IMG/VR virus record: IMGVR_UViG_3300033551_000003
Location: 815 to 64,814 of that record
DNA: 64,000 nt
Reading direction: 5' to 3' (one strand)
From: a virus
Taxonomy: Duplodnaviria; Caudoviricetes
Notes under the pieces: model-generated
Seen by the model: only the letters and a program-made list of their open reading frames with translations
What the model was told of the DNA's origin: nothing
Databases searched by the model: none
Shown: positions 40,906-56,853 of the stretch, one piece after another
Numbering within the stretch: the first letter of the stretch is position 1
Layout: each line of letters opens with the position of its first letter
Program-made: the position numbers and the translations under genes

Positions 40906-40933
40906 TTGATTTCTTGCCGAAAATCACTATATT
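40906..40933 (+). promoter_or_regulatory. Sigma70-like promoter (TTGATT-N16-TATATT)
   Basis: Upstream of the AGGAG RBS and ORF at 40977; same pattern at 41319. Confidence 0.5.
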
Positions 40934-40976
40934 ATATGAGGCTAGCATCCCGCTAGCTAACTTAGGAGATTTGCCT

Positions 40977-41346: not shown

Positions 41347-41797
41347 AGGTGTATTAAAATCGTGGCAGGCACCCACGTTAAAAACATAGCCCAAGGCCCC
41401 TGTGAGGGGGCTACGCCCCTGATCTACAGGGGTGGGCGGCCCCCGCCCGGTTTAAGTGTTATTAGTTAGCGTACAGCGGGGGCAGGCGGGCGGTTCCCGT
41501 GAGCGTCCCACCTGATCCAGGGTGCGTTTCGCCGGTCGTCCCGGAAGAGAAACGGTCCCGGGCGTTGCCAAGAGAAGAAAAACAGTGTGACTAGAACGGT
41601 TTTGGATAGTGTAAACCGATTATCTGAAGCCGCGAGGGTCAGGCGATAGGACACCGAGAGGTGCACGCAAGATAGCGTGTTCTAGGCTGGACTGAAATAT
41701 CCAGGCCGACAACTATCTTGGGCCAGTGTGTTGGTAGGTGGTCCGCGATTTCTCTCTATACCTAGAGGGACGTGTGGACAAGCACACCCTTTAGGTA

Positions 41798-41862
41798 GCG
41801 AAACCGGGATAAAACCCGGTCTGCCGGTAAAGACCCTAGTCCGGCACCGATGAGCAAGGGTC
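41798..41862 (+). ncRNA. Type II hammerhead ribozyme HH1 (core CCGAUGA variant)
   Basis: GC-GAAA-CCGGG/CCCGG-UC-stem I-CCGAUGA-GC; GACCCU/AGGGUC pseudoknot. Confidence 0.8.
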
Positions 41863-41878
41863 AATTAGGAGCAAAATC

Positions 41879-42121
41879 ATGACTACCAAATCTGATGACG
41901 TTTACGGCCTCATTACCTGGGGCGTGGACGTGAAGGAATTCAATACCTTGAAAGCCGCCCAAAAGGCACTCGCTACCAGCGAGTATTCGGCGGCGATCTT
42001 CAAAGGTCCGCGTGGCGAAGTCTGCGGTGGCGAGCAAATCGCCGAGAACGACAAGCCCGAGGCCCCTTGGGAACTGACGAGGAAGACCATCGCGAAGAAC
42101 CTCAAGGTCGAGCGAATCTGA
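41879..42121 (+). CDS. Hypothetical early protein
   Basis: AGGAG RBS directly after HH1. Confidence 0.7.
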   Translation: MTTKSDDVYGLITWGVDVKEFNTLKAAQKALATSEYSAAIFKGPRGEVCGGEQIAENDKPEAPWELTRKTIAKNLKVERI

Positions 42122-42135
42122 CCTCGCCCCAAGAA

Positions 42136-42201
42136 GCGAAACCGGGGTACGCCCCGGTCTGCCGGTAATGATCCTAGTCCGGCACTGATGAGCACGGATC
42201 A
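42136..42201 (+). ncRNA. Type II hammerhead ribozyme HH2
   Basis: GAAA, GUC, CUGAUGA; UGAUCC/GGAUCA pseudoknot. Confidence 0.9.
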
Positions 42202-42216
42202 ATTAGGAGAATACCA

Positions 42217-42414
42217 ATGAAAGTCGTTCTATTTAACGCAACAAAGACGTTGATGACTGAACTTCATATACCAGTCAACAGAAAGGCTGAGATAATTGTC
42301 TATGATGGAGCAGTATTTGTGCTCGCTGAGACTCCGGCAGAGATTAAGGAAATCTGCTACGTCCAAGAGTCCAACACTGTATTCGTAGACCCTTATGAGC
42401 AGCCTGTACATTGA
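42217..42414 (+). CDS. Hypothetical early protein
   Basis: RBS after HH2. Confidence 0.7.
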   Translation: MKVVLFNATKTLMTELHIPVNRKAEIIVYDGAVFVLAETPAEIKEICYVQESNTVFVDPYEQPVH

Positions 42415-42480
42415 GCGAAACCGGGGTAAAACCCGGTCTGCCGGTAATGATCCTAGTCCGGCACTGATGAGCACGGATCA
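42415..42480 (+). ncRNA. Type II hammerhead ribozyme HH3
   Basis: Near-identical to HH2. Confidence 0.9.
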
Positions 42481-42495
42481 ATTAGGAGAATTAAA

Positions 42496-42753
42496 ATGAC
42501 TTATTATCCAAGATTGAGTGTTACCACACCAATTAGTCTTGAGTACCTCAACAACCACGTACCCCAAAAGGTCGTGAAGGAGGTCCTCAAAAAGTTCGGA
42601 ATAAGCGATCAGGTGATAAGCCTGGTCGACTGGAACAAATCGCGATTCCCCGGAGTCGCGTTTGAGCAGGCCTGCCCACGCTTGAAGAACGTGTGGGACT
42701 GGCCGACCTATGACACACCATTTATGAGCAGCCTGAAGCGAAACCGGGTTTAA
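42496..42753 (+). CDS. Hypothetical early protein
   Basis: RBS after HH3; stop in the stem III hairpin of HH4. Confidence 0.7.
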   Translation: MTYYPRLSVTTPISLEYLNNHVPQKVVKEVLKKFGISDQVISLVDWNKSRFPGVAFEQACPRLKNVWDWPTYDTPFMSSLKRNRV

Positions 42754-42802
42754 CCCGGTCGCCAGAGAAACTGATCCCACCCTGGCCTGATGAGCAGGGA
42801 TC
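42738..42802 (+). ncRNA. Type II hammerhead ribozyme HH4
   Basis: GAAA/GUC/CUGAUGA; GAUCCC/GGGAUC pseudoknot. Confidence 0.88.
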
Positions 42803-42821
42803 GTTTTAGGAGAAGAAAACC

Positions 42822-42965
42822 ATGACTACGAAGGAAAAGGTTGTTACCGCGTCCACCGCTCTGGGCGGATTCCTGGCCTACATCATCGTGGCGACCACCA
42901 TCAATCAGGTCATCGCGAGTGTGGTCAACGGAGCCGTCCAGAAGTACGTGTTCAAGACGAGCTAA
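42822..42965 (+). CDS. Small membrane protein (47 aa)
   Basis: MTTKEKVVTASTALGGFLAYIIVATT...; RBS after HH4; below the ORF-track cutoff. Confidence 0.6.
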   Translation: MTTKEKVVTASTALGGFLAYIIVATTINQVIASVVNGAVQKYVFKTS

Positions 42966-42986
42966 CAACGGGGCCAGGAGGCCCCC

Positions 42987-43051
42987 GGCCACAATGATCC
43001 ACCTCTACGCGGTGTGGCTAGAAACGGTTCAAGGGAACCGGCTAACGGATC
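42987..43051 (+). ncRNA. HDV-like ribozyme 1
   Basis: P1 GGCCAC/GUGGCU with G.U at position 1, P2 GAUCC/GGAUC, P3 ACC/GGU, L3 UCUACGC, P4 CGGUUC/GAACCG, J4/2 GCUAA. Confidence 0.8.
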
Positions 43052-43068
43052 AATTTAGGAGAAGTAAA

Positions 43069-43341
43069 ATGTGCAATACACACTTAACGCAGTTTAAGCT
43101 GCGTTGCACCCGAGGGGATGTTGATATTTTTGACGGCCCCGATGGAGTGTACTGGCAGAGTATCATCTACCGAGAGGAAGACGGGTACTTCTGCGAGCCG
43201 TGCAACGGCCCCTTCAAAACGGCGGCCGAAGCACTAATGCATGCCTACCCCATCTTGGAGCATACCAGATGGCTGTTGGCAAACGATGTTTTCGAATTCA
43301 AAGCCTACAATGAAGTGGGCACAACCAAAATGGGGGAATAA
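43069..43341 (+). CDS. Hypothetical early protein
   Basis: AGGAG RBS after the HDV-like ribozyme; start MCNTHL. Confidence 0.65.
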   Translation: MCNTHLTQFKLRCTRGDVDIFDGPDGVYWQSIIYREEDGYFCEPCNGPFKTAAEALMHAYPILEHTRWLLANDVFEFKAYNEVGTTKMGE

Positions 43342-43348
43342 ACCCCCT

Positions 43349-43413
43349 GGCAGCAACGATCCACCTCTACGTGGTGTGGCTAGAAACGGTTCAAGGGAAC
43401 CGGCTAACGGATC
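43349..43413 (+). ncRNA. HDV-like ribozyme 2
   Basis: Near-identical copy; P1 5' strand GGCAGC has one mismatch. Confidence 0.7.
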
Positions 43414-43430
43414 AATTTAGGAGAAACCAG

Positions 43431-43583
43431 ATGACTAAGAATAGTCGTGAGACCAAGCCGCAGAAGCGGGAGGATCTCAAACTGGAAAGACCAGATTACA
43501 CGCTTTCGGTGAAGGAAGAGCAAAAAAGCCCAACCGAGATATGGATGAGGCTTACATTCAAACCAAAGCGAAACCCGCAGTAA
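43431..43583 (+). CDS. Small hypothetical protein
   Basis: RBS after ribozyme; stop within HH5 stem III. Confidence 0.6.
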   Translation: MTKNSRETKPQKREDLKLERPDYTLSVKEEQKSPTEIWMRLTFKPKRNPQ

Positions 43584-43632
43584 GCGGGTCTGCCGGTAAA
43601 GACCCTAGTCCGGCACTGATGAGCAAGGGGTC
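43568..43632 (+). ncRNA. Type II hammerhead ribozyme HH5
   Basis: Stem III CCCGC/GCGGG covaries; CUGAUGA. Confidence 0.9.
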
Positions 43633-43647
43633 AATTAGGAGAAACCA

Positions 43648-43911
43648 ATGCCTACAGAAATCGAAGTTGAGTTCGACTGTGACAGCGAACTGGTGACCAG
43701 AGCCAAGGCTGTCGTTGGAGCCTTCGGAGGTGTGGTTTTGGACGTATTCCACGTTACCGCTGATAATGAGATCGTTGACGATCAGCCAGCGGATGATGGG
43801 TGGACTTTTATGTCCTTTAACATTTCCGACGACCAGGCCCATAACGCCGCCGTAGCTTTGAGCGCTGCCGGGTACGACGTGGTCGTCCACGTGTACCCAG
43901 CTGAGCACTAA
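43648..43911 (+). CDS. Small acidic alpha/beta protein
   Basis: RBS after HH5. Confidence 0.7.
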   Translation: MPTEIEVEFDCDSELVTRAKAVVGAFGGVVLDVFHVTADNEIVDDQPADDGWTFMSFNISDDQAHNAAVALSAAGYDVVVHVYPAEH

Positions 43912-43912
43912 A

Positions 43913-43972
43913 AGTCGAAACCGGGAACCAACCCGGTCGCCTGGTTAGAACCAGGCCTGATGAGACTTAACC
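43913..43972 (+). ncRNA. Type II hammerhead ribozyme HH6
   Basis: GUC-GAAA...GUC-GCCUGG/CCAGGC-CUGAUGA-GAC. Confidence 0.9.
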
Positions 43973-43992
43973 CAAATTTAGGAGAATGAAAC

Positions 43993-44241
43993 ATGACAAA
44001 ACGATCAACCGTTGAACTTACCTTCCAGGGTTACGACCCTAAGAAGGACGACAAGGCGATTAAGATCGCCGAGAAGTTCGGTGGGGAGCTTCTGGGAACC
44101 GGCGTGTGGATCAATGGTCCGCAAGCCGACCTACGGGACATGGAGTTTGCATTTCCAACCACGAAGGCCAAGGCAGCAGCCAAGGCCCTTAAGGAGGCAG
44201 GCTTCAAAGTCGAGGCTCCCCGGACTTACGAAGACGACTGA
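43993..44241 (+). CDS. Small alpha/beta protein, paralog of 44331-44582
   Basis: GGELLGTG...RDMEFAF vs ELGSGAGFGFRDHDFSF; both end in YE(E)DD. Confidence 0.7.
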   Translation: MTKRSTVELTFQGYDPKKDDKAIKIAEKFGGELLGTGVWINGPQADLRDMEFAFPTTKAKAAAKALKEAGFKVEAPRTYEDD

Positions 44242-44247
44242 AAAATC

Positions 44248-44316
44248 GTCGAAACCGGGATAAAACCCGGTCTGCCGGTGAGAGACCCTATTCCGGCACT
44301 GATGAGACACGGGTCT
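44248..44316 (+). ncRNA. Type II hammerhead ribozyme HH7
   Basis: Full core; AGACCC/GGGUCU pseudoknot. Confidence 0.9.
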
Positions 44317-44330
44317 TTTAGGAGAATACC

Positions 44331-44582
44331 ATGAAAAGCAAACGAAAGACTATTGACGTGTCATACCCTCTTCCGCTTAACGAGGAATACGATGATGCTG
44401 TCTGTGACGTGGCCAAGGACCACTACGGACAGGAGCTTGGAAGCGGTGCAGGTTTTGGATTTCGAGATCACGATTTTTCGTTCTCGGCCAAACGCGCCGA
44501 CCAGGCTTACAAAGCCTTCAAAGCGCTGCCCATCAAGGGCATCGAGGTTTCCGAACCTTATGAAGAAGAGGATGATGACTAA
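44331..44582 (+). CDS. Small alpha/beta protein, paralog of 43993-44241
   Basis: See paralog; RBS after HH7. Confidence 0.7.
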   Translation: MKSKRKTIDVSYPLPLNEEYDDAVCDVAKDHYGQELGSGAGFGFRDHDFSFSAKRADQAYKAFKALPIKGIEVSEPYEEEDDD

Positions 44583-44584
44583 AA

Positions 44585-44646
44585 GTCGAAACCGGGCTAG
44601 TCCCGGTCGCGTGGAGATGGTCTCCCACGCCTGATGAGACAGACCA
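44585..44646 (+). ncRNA. Type II hammerhead ribozyme HH8
   Basis: Stem I GCGUGG/CCACGC; UGGUCU/AGACCA pseudoknot. Confidence 0.9.
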
Positions 44647-44664
44647 ATTTAGGAGAACACAAAC

Positions 44665-45315
44665 ATGAAAATAATACACGTTAGATTCGTCTACACGCCC
44701 ACCGAGAGAAGGCCCGAAAAAGAACGCGAAGTTCTGAAAGCCATCAAGCAACTCGGGGGCAAGGACATCAAACAGGAAACCGAAGAAATTAGCCTCGTGT
44801 ACTCCCACGAAATTCGCTTCTCCATCGAGGACGAGGCGAGTGAGGTGGCAACTGCTGCTATGCGGCAGTTCGTAACCAAGGAGAGTAGAGGGGGTTGGGG
44901 TAACTACAAGTCGTTTAGTATTGTTGTATTCGGCCCCTACTCCCCAGAAGAGGACCCTGACGCTCCTGCCCGGCTCCCGCCAAAGGTTGCGCTGGCTCTT
45001 GAAGCCACTGCGCGCTACGAGGCGCGTGACGGGTCGGAGGAGGAGCTTAAATCCTGGATGGACAGCCTAACCAACGGCGACATCCCGAAGCACCAGGGTT
45101 CCAATCCCAAGAACGCGGTGATTGACTATCAACGCGCCGAGCGGTTTTTACAGACCCTCACCGATGAGCAAATCTCGACGATGGCACTAGGCGTTTACGA
45201 CTACTCCGAAGGGGAGCGTTGGAAACGCGCCTTGCCTCTGTTCGAGCATTCGGAAGAGGGTGTGTATGCTGCTTGGGCGCTACACGCCATGTTCTGGGAA
45301 GTTTGGGGCTCCTAA
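44665..45315 (+). CDS. Hypothetical protein
   Basis: RBS after HH8. Confidence 0.7.
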   Translation: MKIIHVRFVYTPTERRPEKEREVLKAIKQLGGKDIKQETEEISLVYSHEIRFSIEDEASEVATAAMRQFVTKESRGGWGNYKSFSIVVFGPYSPEEDPDAPARLPPKVALALEATARYEARDGSEEELKSWMDSLTNGDIPKHQGSNPKNAVIDYQRAERFLQTLTDEQISTMALGVYDYSEGERWKRALPLFEHSEEGVYAAWALHAMFWEVWGS

Positions 45316-45325
45316 AGCCCCAAAT

Positions 45326-45391
45326 GTCGAAACCGGGCTTAGTCCCGGTCGTCGGGAACCTGATCCTACCCGGCTTGAAAAGACAGGATCA
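45326..45391 (+). ncRNA. Type II hammerhead ribozyme HH9 (core UUGAAAA, U3-A8)
   Basis: Stems and pseudoknot intact; compensatory 3-8 pair. Confidence 0.8.
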
Positions 45392-45414
45392 TAACCTCCA
45401 CTTAGGAGAGAACT

Positions 45415-45765
45415 ATGTCTAATATCGAAAGCACGACCACGAAGCCGACCAAGAAGGCCTCGCCCCCGAAGAAGGTGAAGGACGTGGCTCCGGTCCCCCA
45501 GACCGAGCCCAAGGCAACGCCCCCCAAGGCTGAGCCCAAGGTGTCGCCCCCCAAGGCCGAGACCAAGGCCGACGGCAAGGCCGCTCCGAAGAGCCCCAAG
45601 ATCACGCTCCTCGCGAAGGAGTGCCCCTCCAAGAAGGGCACCAATCGTGCGAAGCGCTGGTCCAAGCTCGAGAACGGCATGACCGTCGCCGAGGCTCGCG
45701 AGGAGGGCGTTCCGTCCAGCTACCTTAATCGTATGGCGGATGCCGGCCACCTCAAGATCGGCTGA
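45415..45765 (+). CDS. Pro/Lys-rich protein with C-terminal domain shared with 30416-31048
   Basis: PPK repeats; AKECPSKKGT...GMTVAEAREEGVP. Confidence 0.7.
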   Translation: MSNIESTTTKPTKKASPPKKVKDVAPVPQTEPKATPPKAEPKVSPPKAETKADGKAAPKSPKITLLAKECPSKKGTNRAKRWSKLENGMTVAEAREEGVPSSYLNRMADAGHLKIG

Positions 45766-45769
45766 GCGT

Positions 45770-45849
45770 GTCGAAACCCTGGGAGGGGGCAATCCCCCTC
45801 CCTTGGTTTGCTGGAACCTGGTCCTACCAGCACTGATGAGACAGGACCA
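45770..45849 (+). ncRNA. Type II hammerhead ribozyme HH10 (GUU site, long stem III)
   Basis: CUGAUGA core; UGGUCCU/AGGACCA pseudoknot. Confidence 0.8.
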
Positions 45850-45864
45850 ATTTAGGAGTTTCAC

Positions 45865-46233
45865 ATGAAACAGGAAGTTGCCGAAGCGTGGGTCAAGGAC
45901 CTACGCGAAACTACTGCAAAGCAAACCTCGGGCATGCTATTCGACGGTGTAGGCTATTGTTGCCTGGGCCGTTTGTGCGTCGTGCTCGGCGTTGGGTTCA
46001 CACGTGCCCCCGATGACTCCGAGTGGTATTGGCTAATCGACGACGGCTCTGGAAAGGGCGACGTTTTGTCCCAGTCCGTTACAGACGAGGCCGGGATGAA
46101 GTCGAAGACTGGAATATTCTGCGAGCCTGATAAGCCGGAATACCAGCCATTCGACCTTGCCCAGCTTAACGACCAGGGCAAGACGTTCAAAGAGATTGCC
46201 GACATCATCGAAAAGTATTGGGAGCAGATATGA
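45865..46233 (+). CDS. Conserved-type phage protein (YCCLG...LND.G.TF.EIAD.IE)
   Basis: Recognisable phage hypothetical motif; RBS. Confidence 0.75.
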   Translation: MKQEVAEAWVKDLRETTAKQTSGMLFDGVGYCCLGRLCVVLGVGFTRAPDDSEWYWLIDDGSGKGDVLSQSVTDEAGMKSKTGIFCEPDKPEYQPFDLAQLNDQGKTFKEIADIIEKYWEQI

Positions 46234-46236
46234 ACC

Positions 46237-46302
46237 GTCGAAACCGGGGTACACCCCGGTCTGCTGGAACCTGGTCCTACCAGCACTGAGGAGACAGGAC
46301 CA
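46237..46302 (+). ncRNA. Type II hammerhead ribozyme HH11 (CUGAGGA)
   Basis: Full core and pseudoknot. Confidence 0.9.
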
Positions 46303-46573
46303 ATTTAGGGGATACACAATGATTCGTGATATCGTAACTGAACTGGCCGCGTTGTGCTACATCGTGGCCATCACTGGCGCCATCGTACTAACGGTGGTTG
46401 CCTTCCTCGGACAATAGAGGAGAAGACAAAATGGAAATTCGAATGAGCCCTGCGGACTTGGAGATGGTAATTGATGCACTGGCGTATGCACGTTGGTACT
46501 CTGCCACTAGCAAAGAGGAAGAGGACGGCTACTCCGTGCTTATCGAACATCTCAAGCTCCAACAGGACAACCA

Positions 46574-46639
46574 GTCGAAACCGGGGGAATAACCCCGGTC
46601 TGTCAGGAATGAGCGCCCTGGCACCGATGAGACAGCTCA
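46574..46639 (+). ncRNA. Type II hammerhead ribozyme HH12 (CCGAUGA variant)
   Basis: UGAGC/GCUCA pseudoknot. Confidence 0.8.
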
Positions 46640-46657
46640 AAATTAGGAGAATGAAAC

Positions 46658-47152
46658 ATGAATACCGCTGTACAAGACAGCACACCAAACACAATAGCCA
46701 CCATCACAAAGTGGTGGCAAGGCATAATCGAGGCGAGTACTGCGTGTCTGTTCGGCTGGGCGTTCAGATTCCCAGACGTGCAGGAAGCAGTACTCATTCG
46801 CATCAAGTGTGGGACACCGTTGGGCGAGGCCCTTGACAGCTTTGTCGAAGACAAGCTCGTCGACCTCGACGCTCGCGACATCAACGGGTTCGAGGAGTCC
46901 GTCGAAAAGATAGTCGATTCGGCTGTCGACGACGCTCTCAAGAACCTGGACGACGACATCGACACCGCCGTGGCAAACGCGCTCGGCGATATTGATGAGA
47001 AGGTCGAAGATGCTGTCGAGGAAGCATTCAATAAACTGGCTATCACCGATACGGTGACACGGATTATTGAAGGCATGGCCGCGAATAAGGACCACGACCT
47101 GGTCCGGCTGATCGCCCACCGTGTCTCTGAATTGTCGAAACCGGGGGAGTAA
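46658..47152 (+). CDS. Acidic helical-repeat protein
   Basis: Repeats (AVDDAL, AVANAL, AVEEAF); stop in HH13 stem III. Confidence 0.7.
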   Translation: MNTAVQDSTPNTIATITKWWQGIIEASTACLFGWAFRFPDVQEAVLIRIKCGTPLGEALDSFVEDKLVDLDARDINGFEESVEKIVDSAVDDALKNLDDDIDTAVANALGDIDEKVEDAVEEAFNKLAITDTVTRIIEGMAANKDHDLVRLIAHRVSELSKPGE

Positions 47153-47198
47153 CCCCGGTCTGCCAGAGATGAGCGCCTGGTACTGATGAGACTGCTCA
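47134..47198 (+). ncRNA. Type II hammerhead ribozyme HH13
   Basis: Full core. Confidence 0.88.
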
Positions 47199-47216
47199 AA
47201 TTAGGAGGTAAGACCA

Positions 47217-47648
47217 ATGGCAAAGACTAAGCCAGCTTACATCACTCGTAAGCTAACGGTCGCCGACGCGGTTAGCGAAGCCTACTCAATTCTAGAGGAG
47301 CTCGCTGGCGAAATGCGGGAGGCCTTTGATAACACTCCCGAGAGTCTTCAGCAGAGTGCCGTGGGCGAAGCCCGCGAAGCTGCTGCCGATGCTCTCGAGG
47401 GGTTGTCAGAGCCCAACGTACTTGATGAATTGGGCCGACTGGAGTTCGAATACACCGAACCCCCACCCAAGCGCAAGCAGTCCCGCCGCGATCGTCGTGA
47501 TCAAGCCACCGCCTTGTTGGGTGCCGTTATAGCGGTAGTTGACAATGTCGATGACGAGAACGCCGATGACGCCGTCGAGCTCCGCGATGAATTGGATGAC
47601 TTGACGTCAGAAGCAGATGCCGTCGAGTTTCCAGGCATGTACGGCTAA
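47217..47648 (+). CDS. Acidic helical phage protein
   Basis: DNTPESLQQS; C-terminal VEFPGMYG. Confidence 0.75.
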   Translation: MAKTKPAYITRKLTVADAVSEAYSILEELAGEMREAFDNTPESLQQSAVGEAREAAADALEGLSEPNVLDELGRLEFEYTEPPPKRKQSRRDRRDQATALLGAVIAVVDNVDDENADDAVELRDELDDLTSEADAVEFPGMYG

Positions 47649-47651
47649 CCA

Positions 47652-47719
47652 GTCGAAACCGGGGTAAGTCCCCCGGTCACCTGGAAACCGGTCCTACCAG
47701 GTCTGAGGAGACAGGACCG
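47652..47719 (+). ncRNA. Type II hammerhead ribozyme HH14 (CUGAGGA)
   Basis: Stem I ACCUGG/CCAGGU; CGGUCCU/AGGACCG pseudoknot. Confidence 0.88.
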
Positions 47720-47728
47720 ATTAGGAGA

Positions 47729-48241
47729 ATGAAAATGAAACTATGGACCGCCGGAGGCTGGCACAGAAAGCCAACCAACTGGCAAGAAGTCGGGATGCCA
47801 ATCCCAAATGAGGAACTGGAGGCTCTGCCCCAGTACACCTCCAAGGAATTGGGGATCGAGCGGCATATTTCTGCCGCTTTCAAGATCCCCGTAGAACATA
47901 ACTACTTCCTGGTCGCCCACGAGGGTGGCCTGTACGTGGTTAACACTGAGGGTGCTACGTACGCACGTTACGTGCGGTATGTGGGCACGGGTTTGCCGAT
48001 CGAGGGACTTAAGCACGAGTCCTTCCGGTCCGGCGACGATACCACCAAGTATGTCCGAGATGTTCTAAAGCAATCGGGGTACGATCCAGAAGAGATTATG
48101 GCGGCCTCGTTTGTTCACATGAACCAGACCGGCAAGGAAGTGCATATGATTGCCTTCCCCAACCCGGAGGACGAAGATTTATTCGATCACGGGTATGTCT
48201 ATATCTGGGAGGAAGATGGTCGCAAGCGCGCAGATTTCTAG
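47729..48241 (+). CDS. Hypothetical protein
   Basis: RBS after HH14. Confidence 0.7.
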   Translation: MKMKLWTAGGWHRKPTNWQEVGMPIPNEELEALPQYTSKELGIERHISAAFKIPVEHNYFLVAHEGGLYVVNTEGATYARYVRYVGTGLPIEGLKHESFRSGDDTTKYVRDVLKQSGYDPEEIMAASFVHMNQTGKEVHMIAFPNPEDEDLFDHGYVYIWEEDGRKRADF

Positions 48242-48252
48242 ACTTTCTTGAC

Positions 48253-48513
48253 CACGCCGACGTGCATAAGTAACCCTATCAACGCCAGCGTGTCAGAACT
48301 ATACAGAAGTCCAAGGAATTCTAGCGCGTCAATACACACCAGAAACCCAAACAGCCCGAGCGTGTCAGGACGTACCACAAAACCCGTGGAATGAGAGCGT
48401 GCCGTCTATACGAAGTAACCCTGAGTGGTTTAGTGCGCTAAGAGAGGGGAGCAATCCATGACACAGGAGCGCGCCGTTAGGAATAAGCAACCCAAACTTC
48501 AGTAGCGCGCCAA
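48253..48513 (+). ncRNA. TIGR array 3 (~7 units)
   Basis: AGCGYGYCA-N9-AG(T/A/C)AACCCA-N9 units; ends at HH15. Confidence 0.85.
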
Positions 48514-48520
48514 ACAAAAA

Positions 48521-48584
48521 GTCGAAACCGGGGTACGCCCCGGTCTGCTGGATTGAGCATTCCAGCACCGATGAGACTGCTCAA
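48521..48584 (+). ncRNA. Type II hammerhead ribozyme HH15 (CCGAUGA variant)
   Basis: UUGAGCA/UGCUCAA pseudoknot. Confidence 0.8.
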
Positions 48585-48598
48585 ATTAGGAGAATGAA

Positions 48599-49129
48599 AT
48601 GACAATAACTGGTAAAGCACCAGAACTAGCCAACCTCAATGATGAGGTAGACTTAAGAGATGCTACAATATTCTGCGACAGCGCGGCTGGGGTCTATATC
48701 CCGCAGCGCTTCGCACGAGAAGTGAGACGTGAGCTCGTTACCGGTGTGAGCAGCAAGGACTATGAAGTCCTTGAGGCCGGACCGGATCACGAGCACTACT
48801 GGGACGCCTGGGCAGACGTCCTGGATAACGCTTTGATTAACGACCCAGTCCGGGGCGAGTGCCACCTGCACCAAGACCAGGACCTTTGGGTCGTGCCCAC
48901 CGAGAATCGAAGGATCATGGGTTATTGGTTCCACCCGATGACCCAGGAGGACTGGGATGGTTTTGCCGGAGCAGACGCAGGAAGTTGGATACATCACTGC
49001 TCGGACGGCCGGACCATTCTGATCTACTCGCCGCAGTCCGGCCTGCTGTCTGAGATCGTTGTCAAGGATGACGGTCTCAGCGCAGAGATCCTATGGACGC
49101 CCCAACAGATAACCTCTCAAGGGCGGTGA
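48599..49129 (+). CDS. Hypothetical protein
   Basis: DSAAGVYIPQRF, GPDHEHYWDAW; RBS. Confidence 0.7.
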   Translation: MTITGKAPELANLNDEVDLRDATIFCDSAAGVYIPQRFAREVRRELVTGVSSKDYEVLEAGPDHEHYWDAWADVLDNALINDPVRGECHLHQDQDLWVVPTENRRIMGYWFHPMTQEDWDGFAGADAGSWIHHCSDGRTILIYSPQSGLLSEIVVKDDGLSAEILWTPQQITSQGR

Positions 49130-49194
49130 GTCGAAACCGGGATAAAACCCGGTCTGCCGGATTGAGCATTCCGGCACTGATGAGACTGCTCAAT
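49130..49194 (+). ncRNA. Type II hammerhead ribozyme HH16
   Basis: Full core and pseudoknot. Confidence 0.9.
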
Positions 49195-49208
49195 TTAGGA
49201 GACAAAAC

Positions 49209-49490
49209 ATGATGCAATTGAGAGTGACCTTAAACGGCACCGATCGCAACCCTTGGCATAGGTGGGGGTTAACGCAAAACCCGTTCCCCCAGCTGGGCAA
49301 GGCAGAGTACGACGCCCATTGCTTAAGGCTTCAGTCCTTAGGCGGGGACCCAATTCCCGACACCGATTACATTCGTAAGGTGTTGGAGGGTTGGAGCCCG
49401 GAGTTTGTTGAACTCTGCTGCCAACGCTTTAAGAAGGGTGCGATCGTACAGTTCCACGTGGCGTTTAACGAGTCGAAACTGGGGGTGTAG
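49209..49490 (+). CDS. Hypothetical protein
   Basis: RBS; stop in HH17 stem III. Confidence 0.7.
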   Translation: MMQLRVTLNGTDRNPWHRWGLTQNPFPQLGKAEYDAHCLRLQSLGGDPIPDTDYIRKVLEGWSPEFVELCCQRFKKGAIVQFHVAFNESKLGV

Positions 49491-49536
49491 CCCCCAGTCT
49501 GCCGGATTGAGCATTCCGGCACTGATGAGACTGCTC
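49472..49536 (+). ncRNA. Type II hammerhead ribozyme HH17
   Basis: Stem III CUGGGGG/CCCCCAG covaries. Confidence 0.9.
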
Positions 49537-49555
49537 CAACTTAGGAGATTAAAAC

Positions 49556-49777
49556 ATGACTGTTAAGGAGTTGATCGAACTGCTCCAACAGGAGGACCCC
49601 GAAGCTCAAGTCCACATCACCTACAACTACGGTGATTATTGGAGGACAATCGTTGCCCCTCGCGTTAACCACGTCGAGGAGGGCAGCGTGGCCTTTTCCA
49701 AATATCACAATATGCCAAAGGTGAGTGAAGGTGGGGACGAATCCCCAATTGAGATCGTGGTCCTACTGGGAGCATAG
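49556..49777 (+). CDS. Small phage protein (MTVKELIELL family)
   Basis: Typical N-terminus; RBS. Confidence 0.7.
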   Translation: MTVKELIELLQQEDPEAQVHITYNYGDYWRTIVAPRVNHVEEGSVAFSKYHNMPKVSEGGDESPIEIVVLLGA

Positions 49778-49791
49778 GAGGCTCCAAAGCC

Positions 49792-49962
49792 ATGGAAGTC
49801 AGAGAGCATACCTGCTTAACCTGCGAGCACCAATGGGTGAGCCCCGTGGTGTTCTCGCAGTATACGCAGAACCTGAGCGGTGAACGCACAGAGTTCTGCC
49901 CAAAATGCAACGGCCGGACCGTGTGGTCTGGCCCAGCCAAAACTGTCGAAACCGGGGATTAA
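49792..49962 (+). CDS. Small Zn-ribbon protein (56 aa)
   Basis: CLTC...CPKC; GGAGG RBS; stop in HH18 stem III. Confidence 0.55.
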   Translation: MEVREHTCLTCEHQWVSPVVFSQYTQNLSGERTEFCPKCNGRTVWSGPAKTVETGD

Positions 49963-50010
49963 CCCGGTCTGCTGGAACCCGGTCCTACCAGCACTGATGA
50001 GACAGGACCG
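49945..50010 (+). ncRNA. Type II hammerhead ribozyme HH18
   Basis: Full core and pseudoknot. Confidence 0.9.
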
Positions 50011-50019
50011 ATTAGGAGA

Positions 50020-50637
50020 ATGGAAATGAAAACAGTGAGATTAGGTTTTGATGTACGACTCGCATGCGCGCGGGCCTGGGAGCTCATTTGGGCTTCCAAG
50101 CTCGAGGCACGTGCCAAGGAGAAACATCCACGATGGGCAGGGGCGACGTACTACACCACTGCCAACGACATGGTCAATCAGGTACGAGCCTTCGCGTCAT
50201 GTCACGCCGAGGGCAAGCCCTGGACCGACAAGGTCGTGTACGGCAAGTGGTTTGGGTCTCCCGTAAGATTGCCCTTCAGACTGGAGACAGTCGTTCGCGA
50301 CTGGCTCTTCGAGCAGGCCAGAAACGGCAAGCTCGAGTATCACAATTTTGGACGGGGCCACATCAGTGGTGCCCGCTTCCGCCCGTACGGTGAGCCGATG
50401 GGGCCATCAGAGATAAAGACGATGGTCAACAATCTAAAGCAGCGTACCGATCCCAAACCCAAACCCAAGCATTATAGTAAGCAGGGGATACATGGTCGCC
50501 CGCTTTGCACCGCCCGTCAGCGCAGCGGGTTCTATAGTCGTCCGGACCCCCACGTTCGGACTACCAAGGACCTCCAAGAAGTGACGTGCCCGCGCTGCCA
50601 GAAGGCGCTGGCCTTAATCGCAGAAACCGGGAGGTAA
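50020..50637 (+). CDS. Hypothetical protein with C-terminal Zn-binding motif
   Basis: H...C...VTCPRC; stop in HH19 stem III. Confidence 0.7.
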   Translation: MEMKTVRLGFDVRLACARAWELIWASKLEARAKEKHPRWAGATYYTTANDMVNQVRAFASCHAEGKPWTDKVVYGKWFGSPVRLPFRLETVVRDWLFEQARNGKLEYHNFGRGHISGARFRPYGEPMGPSEIKTMVNNLKQRTDPKPKPKHYSKQGIHGRPLCTARQRSGFYSRPDPHVRTTKDLQEVTCPRCQKALALIAETGR

Positions 50638-50685
50638 TCCCGGTCTGCCGGATTGAGCATTCCGGCACTGATGAAGCTGCTCAAT
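50620..50685 (+). ncRNA. Type II hammerhead ribozyme HH19
   Basis: Core intact, stem II weak. Confidence 0.8.
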
Positions 50686-50700
50686 TTAGGAGAACCACAA

Positions 50701-50994
50701 ATGGCTAAAGCAAAGAAGAGATTCCCCGTGATCACCGAAGCGATCCGGGATCTATGTACCGACAGCGGCTGTTGCTTGGAGTTCCAAACCATAGTCCGCT
50801 GGCTACCACAACTTGCAAGAGTAGAGGCACAGCTGAAAAGGCTATCGCGTAAGCAGGACGGAACTGGCTTTTCCGAATTCAACCACTTTGTATTTGGTGA
50901 TGAGGAAGACCAGAAGCGTCTGCGCACCAAATACAAAATTCAGCTTGCCCACAAGTTCCTCAACGACGTGTTCCATGGCCGGTGGGTGGCATGA
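50701..50994 (+). CDS. Hypothetical protein
   Basis: RBS then ATG (MAKAKKRF). Confidence 0.65.
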   Translation: MAKAKKRFPVITEAIRDLCTDSGCCLEFQTIVRWLPQLARVEAQLKRLSRKQDGTGFSEFNHFVFGDEEDQKRLRTKYKIQLAHKFLNDVFHGRWVA

Positions 50995-51368
50995 AGCGAA
51001 CCAAGCTAGGCGTGGAAATCCCGGTCCAACGGGATCACCGCCGCAACACCATAAATAAACTGGCCAGAACCGAAGTGAGGGGCCAGGACAACCCCCCTAG
51101 CCCGAGCTACGGCCCGGGTTTTAGGCGGATGAAGGCGCGTTTGGGAGCCTCTAAGATGGAGGACATGCGCCAGGATACCATCGCGCAGCAATTCAAGAAG
51201 CGCGAGGAGGTGTCTGGCGAGTCCGTTCCCGAGCGTGACCGCTCATCCTACAAGGATTATCCAACCCCGCGCCAGCGCGCCGTACGCCGAATGGCTGAAG
51301 AAGCTATCGGCAAGGTGCTTGGTACGGTTGAGCCCCATACTGACAAAAAGTCGAAACGCCGCAAGTGA
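50991..51368 (+). CDS. Basic hypothetical protein
   Basis: ATGA coupling; stop in HH20 stem III. Confidence 0.6.
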   Translation: MKRTKLGVEIPVQRDHRRNTINKLARTEVRGQDNPPSPSYGPGFRRMKARLGASKMEDMRQDTIAQQFKKREEVSGESVPERDRSSYKDYPTPRQRAVRRMAEEAIGKVLGTVEPHTDKKSKRRK

Positions 51369-51417
51369 GCGGCGTCGCCTGGAACCCGGTCCTACCAGGC
51401 CTGACGCGACAGGACCG
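51350..51417 (+). ncRNA. Type II hammerhead ribozyme HH20 (CUGACGC; A9C, possibly impaired)
   Basis: Stems intact, core deviates. Confidence 0.65.
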
Positions 51418-51431
51418 ATTAGGAGACAAGC

Positions 51432-52007
51432 ATGACTCAAGAAGAGAAATTCAAACTACACATGTCCAAACTAGACGTACCGGAGGGCTTCTCCGGGGAG
51501 TTCCGGAGGGATATGCCGGAGTGTCTTCACACCGTGAATTACCTTCTCAAGAAGGAGGGCGTGGAGATAATGTTCGACATAACCGGCTCCGGCCACACCC
51601 GGTTCAAGGCCAACGGCGAATGGTACACCTTTGACAGGTTGGGAGTGGAGGATTCGTTCTACCACCTCCCGATGTACAAGGGTCAGAAGGTACCGAGCCT
51701 GAACGAAATCGTCGCCGAGCAGCTTGCGCGTGTCGAGAACCGCATCGCCTACCACAAGACGGCGGTGAAGGTGCCCGGTCTGCCGGGCACCTGGACGGTG
51801 GCACACGATAAGGTGCAGGAGTTGAAGGACCAGCTGAAGGCCAATGGCCATATTACCTTCACTCCGGCCGGTTTCGGAACCGGATACTGCGTCACCAGAA
51901 GGCGGCCGGCAGGCCCCCTGAAGTACGGGCGCAGTCGTGCCAAGCCGGAGCTCGAGGAGTTCCTGGAGTTCAGCCCCCTCTACGTCGAGAACATGGACTG
52001 CGACTGA
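51432..52007 (+). CDS. Hypothetical protein
   Basis: RBS after HH20. Confidence 0.7.
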   Translation: MTQEEKFKLHMSKLDVPEGFSGEFRRDMPECLHTVNYLLKKEGVEIMFDITGSGHTRFKANGEWYTFDRLGVEDSFYHLPMYKGQKVPSLNEIVAEQLARVENRIAYHKTAVKVPGLPGTWTVAHDKVQELKDQLKANGHITFTPAGFGTGYCVTRRRPAGPLKYGRSRAKPELEEFLEFSPLYVENMDCD

Positions 52008-52010
52008 AAA

Positions 52011-52073
52011 GTCGAAACCGGGGTACGCCCCGGTCTGCCAGAGATGAGCTACTGGCACTGATGAGATAGCTCA
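52011..52073 (+). ncRNA. Type II hammerhead ribozyme HH21
   Basis: UGAGCUA/UAGCUCA pseudoknot. Confidence 0.9.
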
Positions 52074-52088
52074 AATAGGAGAAACAAA

Positions 52089-52361
52089 ATGCCAAAGAAG
52101 AAGGAGAAAGACTACAGTATACCAAAACTCAATGATCCTCGCATAATTGGCTATTACCCCAGCCTCAATAAATTAAGTACCGAGGAGTTGGGAGTAATCA
52201 GATTAGACGAATCACAGAAATTCTATAGACGATTAGCAGCCGCCCAAATACGTGCAAAAAGACTGGGCGAGGACCCACGTAAGTGCATGTGGGGATTGGC
52301 CTGGACTGGCACGCCTGCCGAGCAGGCAGCGTTAGCCGATAGGCTGCAATGGAGCAAATAA
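52089..52361 (+). CDS. Hypothetical protein
   Basis: RBS after HH21. Confidence 0.7.
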   Translation: MPKKKEKDYSIPKLNDPRIIGYYPSLNKLSTEELGVIRLDESQKFYRRLAAAQIRAKRLGEDPRKCMWGLAWTGTPAEQAALADRLQWSK

Positions 52362-52363
52362 CC

Positions 52364-52427
52364 GTCGAAACCGGGAACCAACCCGGTCTGCTGGATTGAG
52401 CATTCCAGCACCGATGAGACTGCTCAA
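52364..52427 (+). ncRNA. Type II hammerhead ribozyme HH22 (CCGAUGA variant)
   Basis: Stems and pseudoknot intact. Confidence 0.8.
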
Positions 52428-52442
52428 CTTAGGAGAACTAAC

Positions 52443-52877
52443 ATGAGACAATTAGGTACAAAAGTTTATCTACTTAATCACCCAAAGCTGTCAATGGAAC
52501 TACAACACGGCAGCGAGGGGCCACAATATGACCCCTACTCCTTTCAGGAGATTATCGTCAGGACCCCACAGGGTCGTACGGTACTCCACGAGGGGTTGGG
52601 GTCATGGCTTAAGTTCAATGGCAAGGAGGTCAAGCGCCTACCTGGGCAGGACTATGACGCCTACGAGCGTATGCTAAGGGACGAAGCGTTCCCTAGCTGC
52701 ACGGGCTTCACCGTCACCCAGTTACACCGTATCGCGCGCAAGCTACGCTCGCGTTGCGCTCAGTGTGGTAGCCGAGACTTTCATTATGAGTCCGGCTTCC
52801 CAGGCGAGACCTTTGAGGTTTGCAGTCGGTGCAACCATATCGTTTCCACCAGCTTCAACATCTCTGCCATAGAATGA
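52443..52877 (+). CDS. Hypothetical protein with C-terminal Zn ribbon
   Basis: CAQC...CSRC. Confidence 0.7.
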   Translation: MRQLGTKVYLLNHPKLSMELQHGSEGPQYDPYSFQEIIVRTPQGRTVLHEGLGSWLKFNGKEVKRLPGQDYDAYERMLRDEAFPSCTGFTVTQLHRIARKLRSRCAQCGSRDFHYESGFPGETFEVCSRCNHIVSTSFNISAIE

Positions 52878-52880
52878 AGA

Positions 52881-52946
52881 GTCGAAACCGGGCTCAAACC
52901 CGGTCTGCTGGAAACCGGTCCTACCAGCACTGATGAGACAGGACCG
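52881..52946 (+). ncRNA. Type II hammerhead ribozyme HH23
   Basis: Full core and pseudoknot. Confidence 0.9.
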
Positions 52947-52961
52947 ATTAGGAGATAGAAA

Positions 52962-53240
52962 ATGGCAAAAGAGGTAAGATACTATACTGCAGGGGCCGCC
53001 ATAAAGGCGGTTCTACTGCAAGTTGACTTATACTCACTGGAGCAGTGTAACCCTAACGAGGTTGGGGACTACCTGCAGTTCGAGTACGACGACTATGGAA
53101 AATGCTATACCGTAACTGAGCAAATCGAAGGTATGGCCTTCGCAACAAGTCACGCGTATGGACCTGAATTCGACAGGAAGTTCGTCGTACGCTCTATTGT
53201 TGGTGCCCTTATGGCAGAATACATGGGCATCTACAACTGA
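52962..53240 (+). CDS. Hypothetical protein
   Basis: RBS after HH23. Confidence 0.7.
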   Translation: MAKEVRYYTAGAAIKAVLLQVDLYSLEQCNPNEVGDYLQFEYDDYGKCYTVTEQIEGMAFATSHAYGPEFDRKFVVRSIVGALMAEYMGIYN

Positions 53241-53306
53241 GTCGAAACCGGGCTGAGTCCCGGTCGTCGGGAACCTGATCCTACCCGGCTTGAAGAGACA
53301 GGATCA
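53241..53306 (+). ncRNA. Type II hammerhead ribozyme HH24 (UUGAAGA variant)
   Basis: Close relative of HH9. Confidence 0.75.
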
Positions 53307-53329
53307 TAAATCTTAGGAGAATCAAAATA

Positions 53330-54214
53330 ATGGCAAATAACAATCCACTAAAGGACGTGGCCGTTATAGCGTCTGTAAGTATCAGTCGCTGGACCGGCCG
53401 CAAACTCGATCGGGAAGTTACCGACGAGGTAAACGAGCGTTACGGTGCCGAGATGGATGCCGGACGCTACAACAAGCAACTGATCGCGAAGAAAGCCTTC
53501 GCGGATATCAACAAGATCACCAGGGAAGCGCGCACGCTCCACAAGATCATGACGCAGCCCTGGGTAGGTGACAAGCGTCTGCTCGCCAATAAGCTGATTG
53601 AGAAGTTCACGAAGCGGATGGGCGAGTTGAGGCTGGGCTTCGAAGATGCCGCAGACGAGTTCGACACGAAGTACACAACCTTCATGGAGAACTCGAGGAC
53701 GTCCCGCTTGAAGAAGATGTTCAAGGCCGAGGACTATCCGGATCCGCGCATCGTTCGCAAGAAGTTCTCGTTCCACTGCGCCATCGACTCCATCACCGAT
53801 AACGAAGACCTGCGCCCGAGTGCGTTGCAGGAGTTGTCGGATGATTGGTTGAAGGCGGCCGAGCGGGACTTCAAGGCGGGCCTCGAAGACGCCATGCGCG
53901 ACCCAGTCGAGCGGATCATCGCGGTAGCCACCAAGATGTCCAATCGACTGAAGGAATACAAACCGGCCGTCAACGGCAGCATGGCCGAGAACACGTTCCG
54001 CGACTCCCTGGTCAACAATATCAGGGACCTCGCGGATATGTTGCCGGCGTTCAACCTCACGGGTGATAAGAAGCTCGAGGCTCTCATTGATCGCGTGTCC
54101 CGCGACCTGTGTGAGATCGACGCTGACATCCTGCGGGAGAACGACGGGACTCGTGCCAAGGTTGCCAAGGCCGCCGATGATATCCTCAAGCAGGCCCACG
54201 CCTTAATGGCTTGA
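53330..54214 (+). CDS. DUF3150-like helical phage protein
   Basis: SVSISRWTGRKLD, AGRYNKQL, EDYP, FRDSLVNN, FNLTGD; recalled as often co-occurring with AAA/VWA genes. Confidence 0.6.
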   Translation: MANNNPLKDVAVIASVSISRWTGRKLDREVTDEVNERYGAEMDAGRYNKQLIAKKAFADINKITREARTLHKIMTQPWVGDKRLLANKLIEKFTKRMGELRLGFEDAADEFDTKYTTFMENSRTSRLKKMFKAEDYPDPRIVRKKFSFHCAIDSITDNEDLRPSALQELSDDWLKAAERDFKAGLEDAMRDPVERIIAVATKMSNRLKEYKPAVNGSMAENTFRDSLVNNIRDLADMLPAFNLTGDKKLEALIDRVSRDLCEIDADILRENDGTRAKVAKAADDILKQAHALMA

Positions 54215-54218
54215 GGCT

Positions 54219-54290
54219 GTCGAAACCAAAGGGGGGTATACTCCCTTTGGTCGGTGGGAACTGACCTACCCACCCTGATGAGACAGGTCA
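54219..54290 (+). ncRNA. Type II hammerhead ribozyme HH25
   Basis: Stem III CCAAAGGG/CCCUUUGG; UGACCU/AGGUCA pseudoknot. Confidence 0.9.
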
Positions 54291-54304
54291 TTTAGGAGAT
54301 GTAA

Positions 54305-54664
54305 ATGGCTGGAAACCCCAACAGCGCCCGTGCTCGCTTCAAAGCCTATTTGAAGGAGCATGGAGAGGAGGCCGCCCTAAAGTTCGGGGCGGAAATAGGG
54401 ATGCAACCTGCCCGCATAAAGCGGCTTATTCGCGTATTCACCGGCCAGGCCCCGATCAAGCAGAAACCCTCCACCGTGGAGGTGACTGTGGAACCCGTTA
54501 GGTTTGGTCGGTTTAAGCCGCAGGTTTACCTATTTGGAGACAAGACCTTGGTTGCTCGGTATGTAGCTAAAGGCCCCGAGCAGAGTGAGGTTAAGTTCCC
54601 GAATGGTAACGTGCAGACGGTTGACAATGATTGGCTAACGCCTTTCGAAACCGAGGAGGAGTAA
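54305..54664 (+). CDS. Hypothetical protein (C-terminal SH3/KOW-like strands)
   Basis: RBS; stop in HH26 stem III. Confidence 0.65.
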   Translation: MAGNPNSARARFKAYLKEHGEEAALKFGAEIGMQPARIKRLIRVFTGQAPIKQKPSTVEVTVEPVRFGRFKPQVYLFGDKTLVARYVAKGPEQSEVKFPNGNVQTVDNDWLTPFETEEE

Positions 54665-54715
54665 CTCCTCGGTCACTGGGGTGCTGATCCGACCCCGGTC
54701 TGACGAGATAGGATC
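54644..54715 (+). ncRNA. Type II hammerhead ribozyme HH26 (CUGACGA), 5' of tasA
   Basis: Stem III CCGAGGAG/CUCCUCGG; GAUCC/GGAUC pseudoknot. Confidence 0.85.
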
Positions 54716-54733
54716 CTTAGGAGACAAAGAAAG

Positions 54734-55750: not shown

Positions 55751-55758
55751 GGCAAAAC

Positions 55759-56068: not shown

Positions 56069-56070
56069 GT

Positions 56071-56137
56071 GTCGAAACCGGAGGTACGCCTCCGGTCACC
56101 GGGAACCTGATCCTACCCGGTATGATTAGACAGGATC
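56071..56137 (+). ncRNA. Type II hammerhead ribozyme HH27 (AUGAUUA, A3-U8) inside the TIGR array, no RBS
   Basis: Stem III CCGGAG/CUCCGG, stem I ACCGGG/CCCGGU, GAUCCU/AGGAUC pseudoknot. Confidence 0.8.
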
Positions 56138-56151
56138 TGGCCTACCCGTTT

Positions 56152-56754: not shown

Positions 56755-56756
56755 GT

Positions 56757-56823: not shown

Positions 56824-56853
56824 CAACTTAGGAGATAAACAAGGAAAACCACA

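Follow-up and report, generated by a model that had tools for sequence, protein, structure and literature searches.

HDV-like ribozyme elements within the hammerhead array of a soil phage

Two 65-nt elements with the double-pseudoknot layout of HDV-like ribozymes lie between small genes of a soil phage, in the slot that type II hammerheads fill at neighboring gene boundaries. Helices P1, P2, and P4 covary among relatives, and the sequences that flank the elements are shared with the hammerheads of the same array. The elements are genuine; they add a divergent member to a known ribozyme family, and their type of arrangement is known as well. Judged from sequence, the family closest to them is the F. 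prausnitzii-type HDV-like ribozyme. We consider it likely that both copies are self-cleaving ribozymes of this type that act within a long polycistronic transcript of the phage.

The window analyzed here, 64,000 nucleotides in length, comprises bases 815 to 64814 of a 64.8-kb IMG/VR viral record whose completeness is put at about 63% by CheckV. Phage genes occupy the minus strand in bases 1 to 40000, including those for a family A DNA polymerase, a DnaB-like helicase, a primase, a thymidylate synthase, and a large terminase. Plus-strand genes begin at about 40.9 kb, and the strand composition flips at the same point. This plus-strand block carries about 40 genes, most of them small and of unknown function, together with genes for a transposase-like protein, an ATPase, and an HNH-family protein. 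The window sequence is present in 19 listed sequencing runs, all of soil or landfill DNA and none of RNA.

Structure and family relationship of the two elements

The two copies (Table 1) are identical at 61 of 65 bases and are contained within a 97-nt direct repeat (88% identity, spacing 362 nt). The layout of P1, P1.1, P2, P3, P4, and the J4/2 cytosine is drawable on both. In copy 1, all six P1 pairs form between GGCCAC (42987-42992) and GUGGCU (43014-43019), the first being a G-U pair, and P2 joins GAUCC (42996-43000) to GGAUC (43047-43051). P3 (ACC with GGU) encloses the L3 sequence UCUACGC, which is joined to the AG after P1 by the two pairs of P1.1 (C43005-G43021 and U43006-A43020). P4 is a 6-bp stem (CGGUUC with GAACCG) with the tetraloop AAGG, and J4/2 reads G-C-U-A-A, wherein C43042 is the candidate catalytic nucleotide. 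Copy 2 has the same layout, with C43404 as the corresponding candidate.

Table 1. Coordinates of the two HDV-like elements and of neighboring features in the window
Feature	Positions	Strand	Basis or remark
Upstream gene, 47 aa	42822-42965	+	ORF with UAGGAG and ATG; no Pfam match; start 100% identical to L204 over 126 nt
Hairpin 1, GGGGCC / loop AGGA / GGCCCC	42970-42985	+	1 nt before predicted cut; present in MFE fold
Predicted cleavage site of copy 1, C42986/G42987	42986-42987	+	Inferred from HDV-like rule
HDV-like ribozyme copy 1, all helices intact	42987-43051	+	RF02682 34.3 bits; R2 40.2 bits, E 1.6e-7
Candidate catalytic cytosine, J4/2 of copy 1 (HDV C75 equivalent)	43042	+	C of GGCUAA
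UAGGAG Shine-Dalgarno and ATG (43069) of 90-aa gene	43056-43071	+	Sequence
Gene between the copies, 90 aa	43069-43341	+	No family match
Hairpin 2, GGGGG / loop AAUAAA / CCCCC	43332-43347	+	Stop codon of 90-aa gene in loop; 1 nt before predicted cut
HDV-like ribozyme copy 2, P1 weakened	43349-43413	+	RF02682 28.1 bits; R2 38.1 bits, E 4.8e-7
UAGGAG, ATG (43431), and downstream 50-aa gene	43418-43583	+	ORF
Type II hammerhead, preceding slot	42736-42803	+	RF02276 32.7 bits
Type II hammerhead, following slot	43566-43628	+	RF02276 36 bits
Ribozyme-punctuated array of small genes, about 30 type II hammerheads and 2 HDV-like elements	41796-60437	+	Rfam and own parse

The Rfam model RF02682 (HDV-F-prausnitzii) matches both copies from end to end, with E-values of 1.2e-4 and 3.3e-3 in a 601-nt search. 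When this model alone was run over the 64.8-kb record, the values were 3.1e-6 for copy 1 and 8.6e-5 for copy 2. Both scores fall under the gathering cut-off of 44 bits, while relatives with the same core exceed it (for example, 51 bits for L108 and 70.3 bits for L188). Therefore, the window copies are divergent relatives of RF02682 and not formal Rfam members. The features held in common with this family are the L3 sequence CCUCUACGNGG, a J1/4 that ends in AACGG, a P4 closed by CCGG, the J4/2 sequence GCUAA, and the double-pseudoknot layout itself. The window elements differ from most of the family in having a 6-bp P1 that starts with G-U rather than a 7-bp P1 that starts with G-C. They also differ in their shorter J1/2 and J1/4 and in an extra unpaired C between GCUAA and P2, as well as in their scores, in the soil-phage host, and in having hammerheads in the neighboring slots.

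Relatives were gathered with a pattern derived from the core common to the window and the Rfam consensus, which yielded 9 stretches from viruses, 106 from metagenomes, and 4 from genomes. The scans gave 126 matches in 120 loci; 67 of the matches were distinct, and 2 ran off the end of a locus. L109, whose sequence is the same in L013 and L018, was dropped because its P1 and P2 could not be drawn (5 of 6 and 2 of 4 pairs), and L109 and L013 gave no match to the covariance model R1. L129 was also left out of the alignment, being identical to the window. A search with R1, which covered 70 of the approximately 120 loci, returned 94 matches (83 distinct) in these 70 loci, about 19 of which the pattern had missed.

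In the resulting alignment of 83 distinct relatives (A2), 94.5% of the cells in paired columns hold standard pairs, compared with 74.3% in shuffled alignments, and none of 500 shuffles reached as high a value; these counts are inflated by the many rows that are close kin from gut sequences, and the alignment was fitted to P1, P3, and P4. Sliding the partners by one to three columns lowers pairing to 31-51%. Changes on both sides of a pair occur at all seven pairs of P1, all five of P2, four of the five of P4, and one of the three of P3, and the pairs of P1.1 and two P3 pairs are conserved without covariation. Because the model behind the alignment lacks the pseudoknot helix P2, the covariation of P2 is the most independent support for the fold. 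The J4/2 cytosine is present in all 83 rows, where the pattern forced it in the seed rows and not in the rows contributed by the model only. Conservation of L3 and J4/2 is likewise partly forced in seed rows, since the pattern comes from the window and the Rfam consensus.

A leave-out covariance model, R2, was used to search the 64 kb. Its alignment (A3) has 52 rows and excludes the window, the identical twin L129, and the relative L204. It also excludes a further 13 rows of alignment A1 (L110, L117, L127, L130, L138, L145, L146, L147, L152, L173, L188, L202, and L209) and adds three matches found by model only. R2 retrieves just these two elements (Table 1), the next best match having an E-value of 3.7. 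Nested-only folding with RNAfold is no better than for shuffled sequences (z-scores of -1.2 and -0.5 for the elements, and -0.5 to -1.4 with and without flanks), as is expected because the fold is pseudoknotted.

These data bear on the possibility that the elements reflect chance resemblance or a misassembled spacer repeat. Both scores do fall short of the Rfam cut-off, and Logan contigs from runs X4, X13, X14, and X15 break inside the repeats around copy 2, such that 43057-43395 is nearly uncovered. However, two independent models (RF02682 and R2) return significant E-values, which together with the covariation contradict this explanation. In addition, the copy 2 sequence recurs in the separate metagenome contig L129, and compensatory P1 changes are evident in a relative (GGCAGC with GCUGCU). 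We regard such an origin as very improbable. The original prediction described two near-identical 65-nt elements with an HDV-like fold in a nested double pseudoknot, each with a hairpin just 5′ of the predicted cut and an ATG after it, and it proposed an HDV-like motif search as a check. Each of these points is borne out by the helices, the models, and the covariation in relatives, with the qualification that the RF02682 matches lie below the cut-off.

A slot shared with hammerheads

Both HDV-like slots have the same order of parts, namely a gene stop, a hairpin, the predicted cut, the ribozyme, UAGGAG, and AUG. AAUU-UAGGAG follows each copy directly, and the ATG is located 7-8 nt farther on. 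There are 35 plus-strand UAGGAG sites in 41866-60612, and they are preceded by about 30 type II hammerheads, by the two HDV-like elements, or, in three cases, by neither. In our own parse, 29 of the sites follow a hammerhead of the form GAAA-stem III-GUC, and one more (45853) follows a core with a longer stem III. With the Rfam model RF02276, 20 hammerheads are recognized at E<=1, none of them on the minus strand, and seven to eight of these score above its cut-off. Rfam as a whole, run on the window at gathering cut-offs, reports seven type II hammerheads and nothing else. By our parse, hammerheads are present at a density of about 30 in 19 kb, or almost one per gene. Successive genes are thus separated by sense-strand ribozymes, in a viral record that carries phage replication and packaging genes. 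As originally predicted, the HDV-like elements fill the hammerhead slot.

The closing pseudoknot strand, GGAUC, is located 3-4 nt before UAGGAG in both classes. In hammerheads, the stem I loop pairs with a tail after stem II that ends 3 nt before UAGGAG, and in the HDV-like elements the 3′ strand of P2 ends 4 nt before it. Moreover, 7 of the 30 hammerheads, among them the three nearest on the upstream side, form their pseudoknot with the very helix that serves as P2 in the HDV-like elements (GAUCC with GGAUC). Together with adjoining bases, the P2 strands make up AAUGAUCC and ACGGAUCAAU, which recur without change in the stem I loop and tail strands of the hammerheads at 42134-42203 and 42413-42482. 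This sharing of AAUGAUCC and ACGGAUCAAU suggests exchange between neighboring elements, and it hints that recombination inside this common helix might have exchanged the core of one class for that of the other.

Upstream of the array, the plus strand has a single promoter-like site (40906-40935, TTGATT-16-TATATT), which lies in the divergent region between the minus- and plus-strand gene blocks. Promoter-like sites are no more common than in shuffled sequences. On this basis, we infer that the array is a single transcription unit.

HDV-like ribozymes cut directly 5′ of the first nucleotide of P1. Each of the two elements would accordingly fold during transcription and cut immediately 5′ of its own first G. 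The upstream message would then end in the G+C-rich hairpin plus one nucleotide bearing a 2′,3′-cyclic phosphate. The downstream message would start with a 5′-hydroxyl and a compact ribozyme fold, with 4 nt separating this fold from an exposed UAGGAG that is followed by the start codon. Type II hammerheads would give the same two products, with stem III remaining upstream as the terminal hairpin and stem I and the pseudoknot remaining downstream. The likely purpose would be to convert one long transcript into single-gene messages that could be separately stabilized and translated. The cleavage, end chemistry, and effects on stability and translation proposed here are what we infer from the placement and fold of the elements. 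At intercistronic RNase III sites of T7 and at synthetic ribozyme insulators such as RiboJ, a long transcript is likewise cut between genes, so that the upstream RNA keeps a protective hairpin at its 3′ end and the downstream RNA has a defined 5′ start ahead of the ribosome-binding site. Unlike the T7 sites, which depend on a host protein enzyme, and RiboJ, which is engineered, the cut predicted for the window would be natural and made by the RNA itself.

A type II hammerhead leaves its stem III on the upstream product, whereas an HDV-like ribozyme cuts at its own 5′ edge and leaves nothing upstream. A separate hairpin ends 1 nt before P1 at both copies, and such a hairpin is a regular feature of the family. 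Among 82 distinct members, 70 have a stem of 5 bp or more whose end lies 0-4 nt ahead of P1, whereas such a stem occurs at 83 of 410 random control positions; with a minimum of 6 bp, the numbers are 64 members and 34 control positions. The sequences of these hairpins vary between subgroups of the family. Because a ribozyme that cuts on its 5′ side cannot itself supply a terminal hairpin, the presence of a separate one fits selection for a hairpin-capped 3′ end. We found no published description of a hairpin upstream of drz-Fpra in a literature search that reached part of the key papers.

The array offers a clean natural comparison of why phages place self-cutting RNAs between genes, as two unrelated folds are followed by the same downstream flank. 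Given the frequency of the separate hairpin among family members, the selected traits may be a 3′ end capped by a hairpin on the upstream product and, on the downstream product, a structured 5′-hydroxyl end beside the ribosome-binding site. The locus is of value as an example and for the hairpin observation, as the general principle of interchangeable folds has been published before. In the accessible text of Weinberg, Weinberg and Hammann 2019 (PMC6765202), this argument is made for twister and hammerhead ribozymes: the presence of two unrelated classes in the same locations suggests a need for efficient self-cleavage in which the exact motif is unimportant.

The original prediction held that cleavage itself is selected. 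This is a reasonable inference, but it was overstated, in view of the P1 mismatch in copy 2 and the 7 of about 30 hammerheads whose cores depart from CUGANGA. Specifically, 23 of the 30 cores fit this consensus, and the others read CCGAUGA (before 41866, 46644, 48587, and 52430), CUUGAA(A/G)AGA (before 45403 and 53314), or CUGACGC (before 51420). Because of this mismatch and these cores, some slots may retain structure without efficient cutting.

In its strongest form, this possibility would mean that the elements are kept mainly as folded RNAs, each a compact pseudoknot next to the ribosome-binding site that shields the translation start from sequence lying upstream or blocks 5′-to-3′ decay, with cutting dispensable or lost at some slots. 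It would account for the retention of all other features by copy 2 despite its mismatched P1, for the intact stems and pseudoknot of the seven hammerheads with nonconsensus cores, and for the fixed distance of 3-4 nt between the closing helix and UAGGAG in both classes. However, both copies and the family as a whole retain the catalytic cytosine and the L3 and J4/2 core, and the slot is filled by two unrelated folds whose sole known common property is self-cleavage. Furthermore, related clustered hammerheads cut in vitro, according to the accessible text of PMC3088659. We thus consider it unlikely that structure is what is mainly maintained, and we favor self-cleavage by both classes.

Copy 2, relative L204, and exchange of genes

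In copy 2, P1 is formed by GGCAGC and GUGGCU, which make five of six pairs, with a mismatch between A43352 and G43378 and a G43353-U43377 wobble. The mismatched pair, which the original prediction does not mention, is flagged by both RF02682 and R2. Copy 1 is predicted to be active, whereas the P1 mismatch is expected to make copy 2 cleave more slowly or not at all. The metagenome contig L204 (1282 nt) carries two HDV-like copies in which GGCAGC is perfectly paired to GCUGCU. The first 27 nt of copy 2 are common to the L204 type, while its P1 3′ strand and P4 are common to copy 1. Because of this combination, copy 2 looks like a recombinant between neighboring copies. The intact and P1-mismatched copies, only 362 nt apart, provide built-in material for comparison, as do the relative with a compensatory P1 and the cyclic-phosphodiesterase gene that L204 carries between its ribozymes.

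L129, which is identical to the window, and L204 are the sole relatives found for the window phage, and both came from the pattern scan. A blastn search of a phage collection with 41500-47500 gave no match, and no relative was found among the viral contigs searched with the 216-aa and 348-aa proteins. L204 is 84% identical to window positions 42414-42814 and 100% identical to 42806-42931, and between these two matching parts it contains a 740-nt block that is absent from the window. This block comprises gene X, a hairpin, an HDV-like element, gene Y, a hairpin, and a second HDV-like element, and its edges and junction are located within UAGGAGAA, which both sequences have. The element just before the 47-aa gene is therefore a hammerhead in the window (the preceding slot of Table 1) and an HDV-like element in L204. 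This difference can be read equally well as gain or loss of a cassette in which each gene keeps its downstream ribozyme.

Gene Y (128 aa, L204:213-599, minus strand) matches the Pfam family PF08302 (E 1.1e-8, 35.4 bits, cut-off 23), which is the 2H-type cyclic phosphodiesterase domain of fungal tRNA ligase. Enzymes of this activity act on 2′,3′-cyclic phosphates such as those left by self-cleavage. By tblastn, genes X and Y have no homolog in the window or in any of the 212 loci apart from L204 itself.

In run X15, a contig of 115 nt and low depth connects the hammerhead at 42413 directly with the one at 42737, skipping the 85-aa gene between them. This join may represent a natural cassette deletion through recombination between ribozyme repeats.

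It is conceivable, if doubtful, that the unit of Shine-Dalgarno sequence, small gene, hairpin or stem III, and ribozyme is a mobile cassette along with which the ribozyme class travels, and that some members of the lineage tidy the ribozyme-made ends enzymatically. The ribozyme tail and UAGGAGAA would then serve both as an RNA-processing signal and as a DNA crossover point. Were this so, phages of the lineage could shuffle their early genes freely, with each gene keeping its own mRNA ends.

A different proposal is that the ribozyme tail and UAGGAGAA are mainly a DNA recombination site for small-gene cassettes, such that the class present at a slot reflects whichever cassette arrived. The edges of the L204 block within UAGGAGAA, the X15 join that removes a gene between two hammerheads, and the chimera-like makeup of copy 2 (L204-type 5′ part and copy-1-type 3′ part) agree with it. 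However, recombination is expected at any repeats without selection, and the proposal leaves the covarying helices and conserved catalytic nucleotides unexplained. The evidence in its favor consists of one 1.3-kb contig and the 115-nt contig. We therefore judge a mainly DNA-level role to be quite unlikely and retain the reading of the two elements as ribozymes.

Comparison with known systems and distribution

The closest family corresponds to drz-Fpra-1, the HDV-like ribozyme of F. prausnitzii (Webb et al. 2009, as cited in PMC6765202). A literature search found the term "HDV-F-prausnitzii" in none of the papers covered. Likewise, no description of HDV-like elements inside a phage hammerhead array was found in the literature searched, and the supplementary tables of Perreault et al. 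and Kienbeck et al. may list such cases.

In the accessible part of Perreault et al. 2011 (PMC3088659), prophage hammerheads are described that flank genes and cut polycistronic RNAs of about 2 kb in vitro, and processing into gene-length mRNAs is proposed. The window resembles that system in that self-cleaving ribozymes border individual genes, or short runs of genes, in a long phage transcript. In contrast to the hammerheads reported there, which occur in groups of about three, the window holds about 30 hammerheads and two HDV-like elements in 19 kb. As far as the accessible text of PMC6765202 goes, twister and hammerhead ribozymes occur in common neighborhoods, an observation that later served as the basis for finding pistol, hatchet, and twister-sister. 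The HDV-like class is unnamed in that comparison, and the F. prausnitzii ribozyme is mentioned in a glmM context alone. Unlike the twister and hammerhead case, the two classes in the window replace each other slot for slot within a single array and between identical flanking sequences.

Theta ribozymes are minimal HDV-like ribozymes of phages that are associated with tRNAs and have their catalytic C at the first J4/2 position, according to the accessible text of Kienbeck et al. 2024 (PMC10879173). The window elements share with them an HDV-like fold in a phage and a C at that position. They differ from theta ribozymes in their full-length P4 (6 bp with a 4-nt loop), in their mRNA flanks, and in the absence of a tRNA. 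The comparison with theta ribozymes drawn in the original prediction consequently fails, given the full 6-bp P4 stem with its tetraloop and the lack of tRNA genes in the window.

Members of the family do adjoin tRNAs elsewhere. In L175:2476-2712, the HDV-like element begins at the last base of a tRNA-Leu(gag), and in L143:5620-5795 a tRNA-Ser begins 16 nt after the element. One HDV-like family therefore serves tRNA and mRNA junctions alike. It could be argued from them that the window copies trim tRNA 3′ ends as theta-like ribozymes do in recoded gut phages. This idea is contradicted for the window, where ARAGORN detects no tRNA in 64 kb and where both elements, with P4 at full length, lie between protein genes that each have their own Shine-Dalgarno sequence and ATG. 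Its probability is negligible, and self-cleavage between messages remains our preferred reading of the two elements.

Mixed arrays are sparse among the loci searched. Model R1 gave no HDV-like match at E<=0.1 in 83 hammerhead-bearing viral loci (726 kb). Conversely, 16 HDV-like-bearing loci (143 kb) contain RF02682 matches and tRNAs alone, with no hammerhead or other self-cleaving class at the Rfam gathering cut-off. As these records are partial, the counts show only that mixing of classes is not common.

Arrays with HDV-like elements alone occur in metagenome and viral contigs (L148, L108, L012, L014, L104, L140, and L162), and L148 has three copies in 1466 nt. Each copy in such contigs is arranged as a GC hairpin, an A, the ribozyme, AGGAGG, and ATG. 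No other ribozyme class scores above the Rfam cut-off in L108, L012, L014, L104, L140, or L162.

The window elements also share with RF02682 members an intergenic operon placement with a hairpin just upstream, as exemplified by L188. In this locus (L188:7486-12528), three HDV-like copies are distributed through a bacterial operon for sugar-nucleotide and cell-envelope functions, and one of them directly precedes a phosphoglucosamine-mutase-like gene. The published F. prausnitzii ribozyme linked to glmM may thus be one of several intercistronic copies rather than a gene-specific regulator.
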